From IMG/VR virus record IMGVR_UViG_2541047783_000002: 34,509 bases of DNA. One strand, given 5' to 3'. Below, piece by piece: positions 4,426-14,664 of this stretch (the stretch's first letter is position 1; every line of letters begins with the position of its first letter). Both the position numbers and the translations under genes were made by a program. The notes below the pieces were generated by a model, which had not been told where the DNA came from, searched no databases, and worked only from the letters and a program-made list of their open reading frames with translations. The DNA comes from a virus. Lineage: Duplodnaviria > Heunggongvirae > Uroviricota > Caudoviricetes.

Positions 4426-5306
4426 ACACTCCTCGTCAGTATTCTGGCGGCCATTGCACTTAATCCCGGAGACATGCGGTTGAATGCTGTGCCGGCGGCG
4501 TTAAGCTGCCCGGAAACGGTATCCAGAGCACCTGCAATATTTCTTTTGTCCACACCACTCAGCGCAGACTGTGCCTGCTGTACATACGTGGCTGCTTCGC
4601 TGGCTGTTCTGGCCAGACTGATGGCATCGGGCATGGATTCAGAGAGTGCGTTAAACGCCGGAACACTTTTCCCCAGAGCCCCGGAGATATTACCCAGTCC
4701 GCTCATCAGCCCCGGCACACGGGTCAGTGCGACAACGGGGTTATCCTTCATTTTCTGTGTCACCCGAACGGCGCTGATAGTGGTCTGGAGTACAGACTGC
4801 GCCTGTTTCGCATAGTTGACGCCGTTGCGGATGAACTGCGCCACCCCTGAAGGTGAAGGAATGGCACCGGAGACCGCCCCGACACCCGGGAGCTTCGTGC
4901 GTATTGCCGGTGGTTGCAGAGGATTTTTCGGGTCACCGGTGTATTCCCGGAGAGACACGGTGGCACTGACAGCCAGCACGTTGCCGGTACTGTCAGTCTG
5001 CTCGCTGGTTGCAGTCACATCGGTAATCACGAACCAGCCGCGATAGTCACCGTTGCCGAAGACCAGCGCCAGTGCCTGATGGGCTTTCATGGCTGTTCGC
5101 AGTCTCGCCAGCTCCACATCGGGTACACAATAATGCTGATGGAAAACCAGAGTTATCTGGATTTCGTCCAGCCTGTCGCCGACGAACTGCAGGCCAGGCT
5201 TACCCCCGATGCGGGCATGCTCCGCATAATCGACGCCGAACGTGGCCTCGAAGCCGTCCCAGTAGGTAATCAGCTCAAACTCAATATCACCCAGTACGGC
5301 AAACAT
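4422..5306 (-). CDS. tail protein, gpU-like N-terminal domain with C-terminal extension (Mu DNA-circulation-protein position)
   Basis: 294 aa ORF immediately downstream of tape measure gene (stop/start overlap at 5306). Confidence 0.5.
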   Translation of the reverse strand: MFAVLGDIEFELITYWDGFEATFGVDYAEHARIGGKPGLQFVGDRLDEIQITLVFHQHYCVPDVELARLRTAMKAHQALALVFGNGDYRGWFVITDVTATSEQTDSTGNVLAVSATVSLREYTGDPKNPLQPPAIRTKLPGVGAVSGAIPSPSGVAQFIRNGVNYAKQAQSVLQTTISAVRVTQKMKDNPVVALTRVPGLMSGLGNISGALGKSVPAFNALSESMPDAISLARTASEAATYVQQAQSALSGVDKRNIAGALDTVSGQLNAAGTAFNRMSPGLSAMAARILTRSV

Positions 5307-8257
5307 CAGCGGTACTCCTTACGTTGTTTCTGAGCCAGCAGACGCTCCAGCATTTTTTCCAGCTCATGCAGGCTCATATTCAGGGCGCCAGTCAGTCCGG
5401 CAGGCGCTGTGGTTTCCCTGCCATTGAGGAAAAACTGAGGATTAAAGCTGACCTGGATACCACCAGACGTTCCACCGCCGGTTGCAGCTGCACCACGGCC
5501 TGAATATCCGGCAGCCATGATTTCAGGCGAGGGGATACGGGGAACATCCGGTGTCATCTCATTTGCCAGACGTTGCCCTGGTAAAATCGATGCCCGGGTG
5601 GAGAGCGGGATAGCGGGCATGGAAGACAAACTATTGATTACGGCTCCGATCGCATTTTTAGCAGACGACATAAACCCGTTGATATCGGGCAACGGCATAC
5701 TGAAGCGAACACCTGAAGTGTTATCCCGTATTTCTGGCCCCTGAATGCTCACGGGCATTCTGGGGAGCAGTTCACTGGCCATTCGCTGCCCGGCCAGAGC
5801 TGCAAGCGGAGTGGTCCGCTGCAGGCCAATGGCGGCCCCCTGCGCGATATTGTCACCAAAGCCCATAAACACGCGGCTCGGCGAATGAATGCCCAGCTTT
5901 TCGCTGAACCAGCCACTGATGCTGTCACCCATTCCGGTTACACTGGATTTGAGCGACTCCCATTTGTTTTTGATACCGTTAATCAGACCATCGACAAGAT
6001 GGCCACCGAAGTCGGTAAACTTTGCCGGCAGATCAACACCAAGATATTTCAGCGCAGCTGCAAAGGCTTTACAGAGCAGACCTGCCGGCGACCAGTTAAT
6101 CAGCAGCTTACCAGTTCCCGCGATACCGCCGTTAAAGGCTTCCTGAATGTCAGCCCAGCGTTGTTCAAACCAGCTACTGATGCTGTCACCCATTCCGGTT
6201 ACACTGGATTTGAGCGACCCCCATTTGTTTTTGATACCGTTAATCAGACCGTCGACAAGATGGCCACCGAAGCCGGTGAACTTTGCCGGCAGAGCAACGC
6301 CGAAATATTTCAGCGCAGCCGCAAAGGCTTTATAGAGCAGGCCTGCCGGCGACCAGTTAATCAGCAACTTACCAATTCCCACAATGCCGCCGTTAAAGGC
6401 TTCCTGAATGTCAGCCCAGCGCTGTTTAAACCAGCCACTGACTGCCCCCCAGTTGCGGTAGATAAGGTAAGCTGCTGCCGCGACAGCGGTGATAACGAGA
6501 CCGATGGGATTCATCATCAGCGCACGTCCAATCCAGAGAACAGCACGTCCGGCGAGCATAATTCCGCGAACCAGTCCCCCGGAGAGCACGCCACTCAGTG
6601 TTCTGGCTCCTCTGGCGACGGCGCTAAATCCGGTCACCAGCCAGCGGAGCTTACCGCCTTGCCCCAGTGCGAGCGACAGACGAAGCCAGTTGGCCCGAAG
6701 TAAAACAGCATTTTTCCAGACACTTACAAAGGGGGAAATAAGGAGATTCAGCCCCAGTTTGAGACCAACAGTCGCTATCTTAATCGCAAGGAGCGCACTG
6801 ATGAGCTTAAAAGCCCCACTGACAAATTGCGGGTGAGTCGCTACCCAGTGTTTTGTCCCCTGAATGAGTGGGAGCAGTTCCTGAGTCAGAGAAATAAAAG
6901 ATGGAGCTAATTGATCGCCCAGCGTAATTGCCAGATCGCGACTGCTGACCATAAGTGCTTTAGTGGCTTCAAGGGGAGATTTCAGCCGCTGATCATAAGC
7001 ACTGGCAAGCAAATCGTTATCCGCAGCCCTGAGAGCACCGGCGCGGATCTCGCGATATCTGTCCATGTTGGCCAGCATCGGGCGGATAAATGCCATGACC
7101 TGCATATCCGCGAACATATCACCCAGACCAAAGTTTTTCGCCAGAGCCTGAAGTGCCTCATCTCTTGCCGTATCATTCTTTATTTTCATGGCGGATTTGA
7201 AGCCGGCCAGCGCTTCGGGGCTTTTGGCATTGAGGTAACGTTCTATAACACTCAACATCCCTTCAATCGGAGAGATCCCCGCAGCCTTATAACTCGCAAT
7301 AGATCCCTGCAAATCAATACCCAGATCAGCAAACTGTTTCTGAGTATCGCGGGCAAAAATTTTGGTAAGAAAGTTTTTAAAATTATTGGCTGCCTCGTCG
7401 GTGGAACCTGCACCGATTTTTGCTATCTGGAGACTGGCCCCGATTTCAGCAACAGCCTCTTTTCCACTGGCAATACCCGCCATCATTGGGGCCAGGGACT
7501 GCATCCACTTGACCTGATCCGGGATTTCAAATGACCCCTGGTCACCGGCATAAGCCATAATATTCTGAACGGCACCAAAATCTCTGGCCGCACCTTTCAG
7601 GGAGTTTTGCCAGACTGCGGCCACTTTTGCCCAGTCCTGAGATGACGTGCGTGTTGCCGTTGCCGCGCGGGCAATATCCGGCATCAGAAAACCGATATCT
7701 GACAAGTTATCAATATTGTCGCTGATGAGCGAACCCACCGCCTCCTGCAGCTCATCCTGATACTGATTGTATTTAAGCGCCCAGCCTTTTATCTGTCCGG
7801 CAAGTGCATCCCGCGTTTTATTGTCATATTTTGCGGTGATCGACATATCAATCATTTTGTCCTGAAAAGACATGGACTGCTGAACGGCAGGGGAAACGGT
7901 ATGATAAACAGTCTGTGCCATGCCATACGCTTCAATCCCCTGACCATACAGCGCCATGCGGTTAGCTTTCAGCGCATCACTGGTAGCGGATGCCGCTGAC
8001 AGACGGCGCTGCTGGCGCTCAATTTGCTCCATGGTGCGGCTTACCCGCAGCAGCTCGCTGTTGAGATGCTGCATCCGGGAAGAACCCAGTTGACCATAAC
8101 GTTCTGTTGCACGGGTTAAAGCGTTCTGACGTTCCTGCAGGCGGCGTGAGGTATCGCTCAGGGAATCAAGCGCACGGCGGGTACCGCTCATTGCAGAACG
8201 GAATGTGCTGCCAATCATCCCGCCGATAACAACGCCGACTGAAAACTGTCCCGACAT
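5306..8257 (-). CDS. tail tape measure protein
   Basis: 983 aa, Ala/Gly-rich with predicted hydrophobic segments, internal tandem duplication, located between chaperone pair and baseplate genes. Confidence 0.85.
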   Translation of the reverse strand: MSGQFSVGVVIGGMIGSTFRSAMSGTRRALDSLSDTSRRLQERQNALTRATERYGQLGSSRMQHLNSELLRVSRTMEQIERQQRRLSAASATSDALKANRMALYGQGIEAYGMAQTVYHTVSPAVQQSMSFQDKMIDMSITAKYDNKTRDALAGQIKGWALKYNQYQDELQEAVGSLISDNIDNLSDIGFLMPDIARAATATRTSSQDWAKVAAVWQNSLKGAARDFGAVQNIMAYAGDQGSFEIPDQVKWMQSLAPMMAGIASGKEAVAEIGASLQIAKIGAGSTDEAANNFKNFLTKIFARDTQKQFADLGIDLQGSIASYKAAGISPIEGMLSVIERYLNAKSPEALAGFKSAMKIKNDTARDEALQALAKNFGLGDMFADMQVMAFIRPMLANMDRYREIRAGALRAADNDLLASAYDQRLKSPLEATKALMVSSRDLAITLGDQLAPSFISLTQELLPLIQGTKHWVATHPQFVSGAFKLISALLAIKIATVGLKLGLNLLISPFVSVWKNAVLLRANWLRLSLALGQGGKLRWLVTGFSAVARGARTLSGVLSGGLVRGIMLAGRAVLWIGRALMMNPIGLVITAVAAAAYLIYRNWGAVSGWFKQRWADIQEAFNGGIVGIGKLLINWSPAGLLYKAFAAALKYFGVALPAKFTGFGGHLVDGLINGIKNKWGSLKSSVTGMGDSISSWFEQRWADIQEAFNGGIAGTGKLLINWSPAGLLCKAFAAALKYLGVDLPAKFTDFGGHLVDGLINGIKNKWESLKSSVTGMGDSISGWFSEKLGIHSPSRVFMGFGDNIAQGAAIGLQRTTPLAALAGQRMASELLPRMPVSIQGPEIRDNTSGVRFSMPLPDINGFMSSAKNAIGAVINSLSSMPAIPLSTRASILPGQRLANEMTPDVPRIPSPEIMAAGYSGRGAAATGGGTSGGIQVSFNPQFFLNGRETTAPAGLTGALNMSLHELEKMLERLLAQKQRKEYR
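5907..6428. repeat. 261-bp direct tandem duplication (2 copies, a few mismatches) inside tape measure gene
   Basis: Motif aaccagc[ct]actga recurs at 5907, 6168 and 6429; encoded peptide repeat SWFEQRWADIQEAFNGGI...KWxSLKSSVTGMGDSIS occurs twice in the 983-aa product. Confidence 0.85.
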
Positions 8258-12581: not shown

Positions 12582-13535
12582 TTATTTACTGATACCGGTG
12601 ATGAGATACCCGGCATCGCCACCAACCACGGCGACTTTGTAGATATCGGTATAACGGCAGTACTTCACCTTGCCACCGGCTCCGTCGTATTTGTCGGCAA
12701 CAGGCATCCCCTTACGACGCAGGGTGTAGCCGAAGGACGGCTCGTTCTCGTCCGCGCTGTCCGCCCCCGGCTGCGGTTTGCCGACATAGTGCAGCATCAG
12801 ATTGTCTCCCCAGATATCCGCCGGCACGCTGTTCTTATCCATTGCCGCTTTCATGGACGGCAGGGAGACCGGGGCACCGATGACGACCTCTTCGATCTGA
12901 AAGAGGTCCTGCAGGATCTCTGTGGTGATGCGCTTGCGTTCGTTGGCTCCGATGGCGGCCTGAATCGCCGGGTGGAACTTCAGCAGCGCCATCACGCCGG
13001 CCCCCATGGTCATCAGGTTAGGACGCAGCCCCGTGGCCGTACGGACCGCTTCCATACCGGCTTCAATCACCCCGATGGGGTCCCCTTTACCACCGGCCCA
13101 GCGATCACTGGCTGTCAGTTTTTTGACGTGCCCGGTACGGTAGACCTTTTCATCCTGAGCCAGACGGGCAGCGATAAGTTCACGGCGCAGGTTCACGCCG
13201 TTCGTGGCGCGACGGATGGCCTTGCTCTCTTCGTTAAACATGGACTCCGCCTGTTCGCGATAGTCCACCGGCGCAGCCAGATCGTGCTCACCCAGCACCA
13301 GATCAAGCGTGCCGGTTTTCTCACGGACCAGAACATTGCTGTCCGCCCCGACGGCACGCTCGGTGTCATATTCCACAAAGGCGGTTTTCCCGAAGGTCGG
13401 CACACGCACGCCTTCCTTGTCCGTCAGCACGACGGGGAAAATACGTTCGCCGATGAATGCGGCATTTTTATAGCCTCGGGCGATACTGGTCAGTACCGGA
13501 TCAACGACACGTTTACCTTTTAAGTAATCAGACAT
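12582..13535 (-). CDS. major capsid protein (Mu gpT-like)
   Basis: 317 aa following protease/scaffold gene, as in Mu head operon (I then T). Confidence 0.7.
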   Translation of the reverse strand: MSDYLKGKRVVDPVLTSIARGYKNAAFIGERIFPVVLTDKEGVRVPTFGKTAFVEYDTERAVGADSNVLVREKTGTLDLVLGEHDLAAPVDYREQAESMFNEESKAIRRATNGVNLRRELIAARLAQDEKVYRTGHVKKLTASDRWAGGKGDPIGVIEAGMEAVRTATGLRPNLMTMGAGVMALLKFHPAIQAAIGANERKRITTEILQDLFQIEEVVIGAPVSLPSMKAAMDKNSVPADIWGDNLMLHYVGKPQPGADSADENEPSFGYTLRRKGMPVADKYDGAGGKVKYCRYTDIYKVAVVGGDAGYLITGISK

Positions 13536-13548
13536 GCTCTCTCCTTAA

Positions 13549-14664
13549 TTACAGGCAGCGTGCGACAGCAGCCTCATAGCTGATGCCTTCTTTTTTCGAC
13601 AGGGCCACTGCTTTCTGATGCAGGGCCAGACGCTCAGGATCGGCTTCCGCAAACTCCGTCACATCCACCTTCACCGTGTCGCCGACACGCTCCTTTGTGG
13701 CCTGTTCGGCGAAATTCATCACCGGCTCCCCGTCGGAGAGCAATGAACGAAAGGCGGTCGCCAGCGGTGTGCGGCTTTCCCCCTCAGCAAACTCCACCGG
13801 CTTGTCGCCACCGGCGACGGCATCCAGCAGGGCAACCACCACGGAGGAGGCGCGGGGAGCCAGACGGCCCTCTGCGACCAGTTTTTCTGCAAAGGCCACA
13901 TTGTCCTTATGCAGTTGCTCCTGTCTGACCTGTGCATCACGCGCATCGCGATCAGCAGCCTGCTGCTTCAGGCGGCGGTTCTCCTCCTGAAGGGCTTCAA
14001 TCTCTTCTTTTGTCATCGATGATTCCTCGTTACTTGCGGAAGACGGCCCCGGGCCTGTCTCACTGAATTGTGCACCTGCTGCATCCTGCGACGGTGTGTC
14101 GCGGTACGCCTCTTCGCGCAGATTGTTGAGCTGCCATTCCGGCAGGACTTTTTCTGCTTCGTCCAGACTGAAGCGGGCGATCAGAAAATCGCGCAGCTTT
14201 CCCCACAGGGAGGCATTCGTGATGGCCTGCCAGTCGGCGAACTCCACCACACCTTCTTCCTGCTCACTGAAGGACACCTGTTTCAGCCCCTTGACGGAAG
14301 GTGGCTGTGCCCCGAGAAAGCCCACATGGCGCAGGTAGAGCACGCCGGGCTTCGGATTGGACGGTGAATCCGGGAGGTAGAAAGAGGCGGACACTTTTTT
14401 GAATCGTCCGTCGGTGACCATCTCAGCAAACTGCGGGTCCAGCTGGGCAGGCTCTGCCATCAGATCGACGCCGCTGAGCGACAGGGCTTTCACCCAGCCC
14501 CACGCCGGGTCTTCCGTTCTGGGATGACCAATCACGAGTGGTGCTTCATGGACGGACGGGTCATAGGCTTTCACGCAGGCGGCAAGATCGTCTGGCGTGA
14601 ACGGCAGTTTTTTGCCGTGCATATCGGTATGAGTACCGGCTTTAAAAATGTGAATGGCTGACAT
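13549..14664 (-). CDS. head maturation protease / scaffold protein (Mu gpI-like)
   Basis: 371 aa; N-terminal protease-like region, C-terminal coiled-coil/charged scaffold-like region (LQEENRRLKQQAADRDARD). Confidence 0.7.
   Translation of the reverse strand: MSAIHIFKAGTHTDMHGKKLPFTPDDLAACVKAYDPSVHEAPLVIGHPRTEDPAWGWVKALSLSGVDLMAEPAQLDPQFAEMVTDGRFKKVSASFYLPDSPSNPKPGVLYLRHVGFLGAQPPSVKGLKQVSFSEQEEGVVEFADWQAITNASLWGKLRDFLIARFSLDEAEKVLPEWQLNNLREEAYRDTPSQDAAGAQFSETGPGPSSASNEESSMTKEEIEALQEENRRLKQQAADRDARDAQVRQEQLHKDNVAFAEKLVAEGRLAPRASSVVVALLDAVAGGDKPVEFAEGESRTPLATAFRSLLSDGEPVMNFAEQATKERVGDTVKVDVTEFAEADPERLALHQKAVALSKKEGISYEAAVARCL

Follow-up and report, generated by a model that had tools for sequence, protein, structure and literature searches.

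We consider it probable that the 261-bp tandem repeat in the tape measure gene of a BcepMu-like prophage common in Escherichia coli is a genuine, fairly old and copy-number-variable part of that gene, a reading that includes the origin proposed for the repeat below and an effect of unit number on tail length. The repeat was found in what is here called the window, the whole 34,509-nucleotide stretch of viral DNA that was analysed (IMG/VR record IMGVR_UViG_2541047783_000002).

Host gene and repeat units

The tape measure gene lies on the minus strand of the window at 5306–8257 and encodes 983 residues. The translated ORF matches Pfam family PF10145 (PhageMin_Tail/TP901 family), scoring 72.6 bits where the cut-off is 33.2 (E = 5e-20, residues 159–340). 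Among the PHROG families it matches phrog_5690 (E = 2e-297) and phrog_28, ‘tail length tape measure protein’ (E = 1e-134), and where the identical gene occurs in E. coli chromosomes, RefSeq labels it ‘phage tail tape measure protein’. From the PHROG matches and the annotation of Escherichia phage PhiKM and E. coli, the genes run in the order sheath, tube, tail assembly chaperone pair, tape measure and then gpU/X/D-like genes. The preliminary description, which had named the gene a tape measure from the letters of the DNA, was right in this.

The host element is a BcepMu-like (Bcepmuvirus) transposable myophage, as indicated by its Mu-type transposase, its transposition protein and its contractile tail. 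The first two are encoded in the other half of the window, with matches to phrog_310 (transposase, Mu-type, 6e-148) and phrog_296 (DNA transposition protein, 2e-93), and the sheath gene matches phrog_23, the tail module being contractile and P2-like. The nearest phage record is that of PhiKM (PQ738613), which is classified as Bcepmuvirus, is 96.4% identical, shares the gene order and has Mu-numbered head genes. PhiKM and the E. coli prophages in RefSeq (e.g. WP_000016538.1, JJ1887) have the same gene in the same order at 96–100% nucleotide identity, and biologically it does not differ. A literature search for PhiKM returned no paper on this phage, its matches concerning only the unrelated phiKMV.

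A single array was reported by Tandem Repeats Finder (TRF), at 5907–6441 (period 261, 2.0 copies, 92% matches, no indels, score 937), and a pairwise repeat search gave two units, 5907–6167 and 6168–6428, with 93% identity and a spacing of 261 nt. The units stand head to tail with no spacer, and their period (261 = 3 × 87) is in frame. Both are read from the minus strand: unit 1, the promoter-proximal one (6168–6428), covers nucleotides 1830–2090 of the gene (about residues 611–697), and unit 2, the distal one (5907–6167), covers nucleotides 2091–2351 (about residues 698–784). The TRF array ends at 6441 because the similarity of the units runs on for 13 nt on the high-coordinate side (6429–6441), which is upstream in gene orientation. 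These 13 nucleotides, TCAGTGGCTGGTT, lie just upstream of unit 1 on the minus strand and encode S-G-W-F. They form a direct repeat with the last 13 nt of unit 2 (5907–5919), to which they are identical, and they match the end of unit 1 at 12 of 13 positions.

Counted directly, units 1 and 2 mismatch at 19 of 261 nucleotides (7.3%) with zero gaps, and 78 of their 87 residues are identical. A chance origin of so good a match is ruled out. TRF, the direct count and the frame of the ORF agree on a 261-bp in-frame tandem duplication of 87 residues within the tape measure gene, as had been proposed. The preliminary description, which placed it at 5900–6428, had the end right and the start 7 nt too low (true start 5907), and its statement that the copies differ at ‘only a few positions’ understated a divergence that comes to 19 nucleotides and 9 of 87 residues. 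The differences comprise 10 synonymous and 9 non-synonymous changes (dS 0.19, dN 0.047), and the resulting dN/dS of 0.25 indicates that both units are kept under purifying selection.

An ORF of 272 codons runs antisense to the gene through both units (5885–6703, plus strand, in the ORF list). Comparing the units in the frame of this ORF gives a dN/dS of 0.86–1.09, as opposed to 0.25 in the tape measure frame, and the in-frame duplication lengthens it by 87 codons, taking it from about 185 codons to 272. We regard this plus-strand ORF as probably spurious and a by-product of the duplication, in line with the earlier suggestion.

Within the protein, the units occupy 62–80% of the length, just after the hydrophobic region and before the conserved C-terminal motifs. 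In the translation, Trp, Phe or Tyr stands at unit positions 4, 11, 25, 32, 35, 42, 43, 51, 54, 69, 86 and 87. The aromatic residues are irregularly spaced within the 87 residues, with no Trp/Phe periodicity of 11 or 18 residues, and TRF gives no shorter period. A BLASTP comparison of the 983-residue protein with itself returned the full-length diagonal alone, which is uninformative about older internal repeats.

Copy-number alleles and predicted tail length

Of 5426 complete E. coli genomes, 636 match the 2952-bp gene of the window, and in eight the identity is 100%. In hundreds of these the match is a single ungapped alignment across all 2952 bp, so both units must be present in the genome matched. 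A BLASTN search with one unit and its 100-nt flanks revealed exactly one, two or three units, spaced by 261 nt, with flanks 97–100% identical. The comparison of tape measure lengths among related prophages that the preliminary description had suggested accordingly yields proteins of 896, 983 and 1070 residues, by unit number: a gene of 2691 nt has one unit (L002), the 2952-nt gene of the window and of L006 has two, and a gene of 3213 nt has three (L003–L005). Genes of 2466 and 2478 nt, encoding 821 and 825 residues (L007–L009), also have one unit. These last lack, in addition, a 71-residue segment that is present in the window gene (residues 823–893; 5579–5791, minus strand) and emerged from the alignment as a second length-variable part of the gene. 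By tblastn, this segment is found in two of 20 relatives from other species (L017 and L021).

When 60 of the 636 genomes were sampled systematically, two units were present in 42 and three in 11; one had the single-unit 896-residue form, four had the 821- or 825-residue form and two gave fragments. The best 120 matches in the protein collection included full lengths of 896, 983 and 1070 residues in 27, 43 and 17 entries, respectively, and one cluster of 983-residue proteins has 1995 member sequences. No four-unit protein is among these 120 best matches listed, though such a protein would top the scores. Outside E. coli, in a set with one genome per species across bacteria, all 20 relatives from other Enterobacterales genera have a single unit. 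The sole two-unit match in that set is a low-coverage 8-kb contig labelled Arthrobacter; it shares 99% identity with the E. coli gene, and contamination is the simplest explanation for it.

In the contractile tail of phage T4, the length of gp29 sets the length of the tail. We know of no description of natural copy-number alleles for the gene of T4 gp29 or that of lambda gpH, and neither protein has a detectable close sequence relationship with the one studied here. For lambda gpH, too, protein length is reported to set tail length (Katsura 1987, as cited in PMC9022992). In the lactococcal phage TP901-1, in-frame deletions and duplications engineered into the tape measure gene alter tail length in proportion, such that removing or adding 29% of the residues shifts it by ∼30% (PMC5099701), and a rise of 0.15 nm per residue reproduces the measured tails of phiCbK-like phages (PMC3556154). 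It is this established ruler behaviour in other phages that leads us, like the preliminary description, to predict a longer tail with more units. As the ruler within the tail tube during its growth, the protein would add ∼13 nm, or roughly three rings of the tube, to the tail with each 87-residue unit, and the expected tails, at 0.15 nm per residue, are ∼134, 147 and 160 nm for 896, 983 and 1070 residues.

A single-sequence AlphaFold2 model of residues 590–800 is almost all helix by DSSP and of very low confidence (mean pLDDT 41.7, pTM 0.20), too weak a basis for calling the repeat region a helical ruler segment. The database homologues usable for a deeper alignment of the unit region are all more than 86% identical.

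The segments of a tape measure protein may not all contribute equally to length. As a rival reading, the repeat could be real and variable while neutral for the tail, lying outside the length-determining part, for example in a C-terminal portion that is processed or interacts with the membrane, with its copy number drifting freely. We think this rival improbable. A long hydrophobic region does precede the units, and the conserved C-terminal motifs come after them; the structure model for the repeat region, at its mean pLDDT of 41.7, is uninformative, and the persistence of one-, two- and three-unit alleles in nature fits weak selection on copy number. Against this stand the purifying selection on both units (dN/dS 0.25) and the deletions in TP901-1, where losses from the repeat region and from a hydrophobic region both shortened the tail in proportion to their size (PMC5099701). 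The two-unit alleles, moreover, dominate strongly (roughly 70% of sampled carriers), and with this predominance copy number does not have the appearance of drifting evenly.

Taking the preferred reading, in which each unit lengthens the tail, a bolder proposal can be built on it, namely that the 87-residue unit is a natural length cassette whose recurrent gain and loss sustains three discrete tail lengths ∼13 nm apart in one widespread E. coli prophage family, with strains differing in the length that selection favours. We put this forward tentatively and hold it to be rather doubtful. If true, the selector of length between strains might be, for example, the thickness of the host capsule or O-antigen, and the alleles would be a natural set on which control of length by a ruler could be tested in a contractile tail of the P2/Mu type.

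The closest parallels to the repeat lie in other tape measure genes. According to a survey of 2026, about half of 45,500 tape measure proteins contain tandem repeats (PMC13585406), and Belcaid et al. (2011) reconstructed histories of unit duplication and loss for 11-residue tape measure repeats (PMC3271669). The present repeat shares with the latter the in-frame duplication and loss of units and a history that can be read from the unit sequences, but its unit is eight times longer and has no 11-residue aromatic periodicity. With TP901-1 (PMC5099701) it shares the PF10145 family, the succession of hydrophobic regions and repeat region, and in-frame changes of length. The tail of TP901-1, however, is non-contractile, its 29 repeats are short (11 or 18 residues, with aromatic marks) and its variants are laboratory constructs, whereas here an 87-residue unit occurs in one to three copies, as natural alleles of a contractile-tailed phage. 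In the searchable literature, including that on BcepMu with E. coli and tape measures, no paper turned up that describes the present repeat. The variation is thus of a known kind, and is distinctive for its 87-residue unit, for the lack of an 11-residue periodicity and for its occurrence in a contractile-tailed Mu-like prophage.

Age, recombination and origin of the repeat

The units of different E. coli alleles resemble each other by position. In a distance matrix of units across these alleles, first units are 3–9 nt apart and last units 1–6 nt apart, while first and last units are 15–20 nt apart, within and between genomes alike. For the window, unit 1 stands 3–9 nt from other alleles' first units, and unit 2 stands 4–6 nt from their last units. 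The units are thus orthologous by position, from which it follows that the duplication is older than the split of the E. coli prophage lineages. Synonymous divergence points the same way. Between the whole-gene orthologues of the window and the JJ1887 allele, dS is 0.11 for the 5′ part of the gene and 0.03 for the 3′ part, and the dS of 0.19 between the two units is at least at this level, so that ‘recent’, the term the preliminary description had used of the duplication, is unsupported.

That reading, of a recent duplication private to this prophage, can call on the plain relatedness of the units (93% identity, no indels) and on the single unit of the relatives in other species, but we judge it very unlikely. 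The 19 differing sites give a dS above the 0.03–0.11 seen for orthologues between E. coli lineages, and the two-unit structure, with its position-specific unit types, recurs in hundreds of genomes from unrelated strains. At 7.3% divergence, the units group by position across genomes and not within a genome.

We also considered that the outer halves of the two units had been homogenised by recombination with single-unit phages, an idea suggested by a clustering, at the protein level, of derived changes near the internal junction. It was dropped when the 19 nucleotide differences were polarised with three outgroups, which placed derived states interspersed in both units.

The fairly old repeat of our preferred reading bears traces of exchange. 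The single unit of L002 has the states of unit 1 at all variable positions in 1–95 and those of unit 2 at all variable positions in 108–253, and when polarised by the outgroups it includes derived states of both. This marks it as a secondary contraction, produced by a crossover between misaligned units, rather than as the ancestral form. Among the three-unit alleles, the middle unit of L004 equals unit 1 over positions 101–261 and is two sites off the last unit over positions 1–100, whereas in L005 the middle unit differs from that allele's unit 1 at just two sites; middle units of such different make imply that expansion happened separately at least twice. In JJ1887, the first unit is unit-2-like in its 5′ part, which suggests further exchange between units. 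Since the units that were gained, or that survived a loss, are built as chimeras from neighbouring ones, repeated unequal recombination is indicated, and the view that the site is recombination-prone is upheld by relatives that carry chimeric units as well as one-, two- and three-unit alleles.

A plausible course of events would begin with an ancestor that had one 261-bp unit flanked by a direct repeat of ∼13 nt encoding SGWF. In the single-unit outgroups, the 13-nt direct repeat is already there, at 10–11 of 13 identity and with its copies 261 bp apart. The repeat TCAGTGGCTGGTT is the likely point of the misalignment that made the duplication, and slippage or short-homology recombination there would have given the lineage resident in E. 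coli a gene of two units. The later steps are shown by the sequences: the two units were retained under purifying selection and have come to differ by 7%, and on their 261-bp tandem homology unequal homologous recombination has acted repeatedly, with gain of a unit giving the 1070-residue protein and loss the 896-residue one, leaving chimeric units behind.

Complete genomes, draft genomes and use of the alleles

The junction between units was searched with an 80-nt probe, at an E-value limit set to leave out half-matches, and was found at 780 places in 572 complete E. coli genomes; an equivalent probe for the boundary between the upstream flank and the unit was found at 768 places in 624. Set against each other, 572 and 624 genomes imply that ∼92% of carriers have at least two units, a census that is approximate, as some genomes have several prophage copies (up to six places per genome). 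The two junction counts amount to two equations with three unknowns, so the exact split into one-, two- and three-unit genes is not derivable from them.

That one true unit was expanded to two during assembly, the artefact against which the preliminary description had cautioned, is in our judgement very unlikely: tandem repeats this large do cause assemblers trouble, and a sequencing gap does lie at the repeat within the PhiKM tape measure gene, but two-unit genes that are identical to this one or nearly so are present in several hundred complete genomes, the work of many laboratories, the junction in 572 complete E. coli genomes refutes the artefact, and an expansion would create no such differences as the 19 fixed sites that separate the units. 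The genuine repeat troubles assemblies by breaking them, not by adding copies. In PhiKM, the annotation of the tape measure gene reads ‘coding region disrupted by sequencing gap’ at precisely the position of the repeat, whose copy number is unrecorded there. The single-unit proteins in the protein collection comprise at least 10 distinct haplotypes with different apparent breakpoints, and some of these entries, from short-read or metagenome assemblies, may be collapsed repeats. Because the repeat breaks or collapses in short-read assemblies, as in PhiKM, copy number in draft genomes is not to be trusted without spanning reads.

The repeat leaves the current understanding of tape measure proteins unchanged, and its practical value is modest. 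The pattern of units could serve in typing this common prophage. Sequenced strains are at hand for each allele, with one unit in E30 (CM143888), two in JJ1887 (CP014316) or A24 (CP028751), and three in CU568-3 (CP082775). In prophages that are otherwise near-identical, these one-, two- and three-unit alleles offer a ready means of testing, in a Mu-like contractile tail, the rule that the protein acts as a ruler.

Further length variation in the tape measure gene

A second length polymorphism of the tape measure gene is a 71-aa segment on the minus strand (window 5579-5791, residues 823-893). Alleles of 896, 983 and 1070 aa contain it, as do two relatives belonging to other genera, but it is missing from those of 821 and 825 aa, that of Klebsiella phage KP12 among them. 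The segment opens with GQRMASELLPRMPVSIQGPEI, which is similar to GQRLANEMTPDVPRIPSPEI directly following the segment. It may represent an older, decayed partial duplication.

A further tandem duplication, distinct from the 87-aa units, was observed in P0018, a 1084-aa protein from an E. coli contig that was recovered by searching a protein collection with the window's tape measure protein. This duplication of ∼101 residues spans the hydrophobic region, at residues ∼531-631 of the window's protein, and occurs in addition to the two 87-aa units. It comes from a single record, so it may reflect an assembly error.

Disrupted genes, multiple copies and probable contamination

In the GenBank record of PhiKM (PQ738613), the nearest isolated phage, a sequencing gap interrupts the tape measure gene precisely where the repeat lies (13434-13760). 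The three-unit allele of E. coli A1.S1.65 (CP146591, 2501-5713) is annotated as two pseudogene fragments, a split that may reflect either a genuine frameshift or an assembly error at a homopolymer.

The tape measure boundary probes matched at up to six places in some complete E. coli genomes, and thus several copies of the transposable prophage, or close relatives of it, reside on one chromosome, blurring the census of unit copy number in these genomes.

Three loci labelled as Arthrobacter sp. GMC3 and Y81 (L011, L031 and L033) share 98-99% identity with the E. coli prophage tape measure gene. They lie on short, low-coverage contigs from two Arthrobacter assemblies, and most likely represent E. 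coli contamination of these assemblies.

The prophage of E. coli A24

E. coli A24 (CP028751) carries a tape measure gene 100% identical to that of the window. The prophage end in this strain (32216-32380 of locus L034) adjoins a truncated mdfA gene, as would be expected if the phage had inserted into a host gene in the manner of Mu. The same prophage has a recombinase gene beside inverted tail-fibre fragments, and this gene order suggests an invertible host-range segment.
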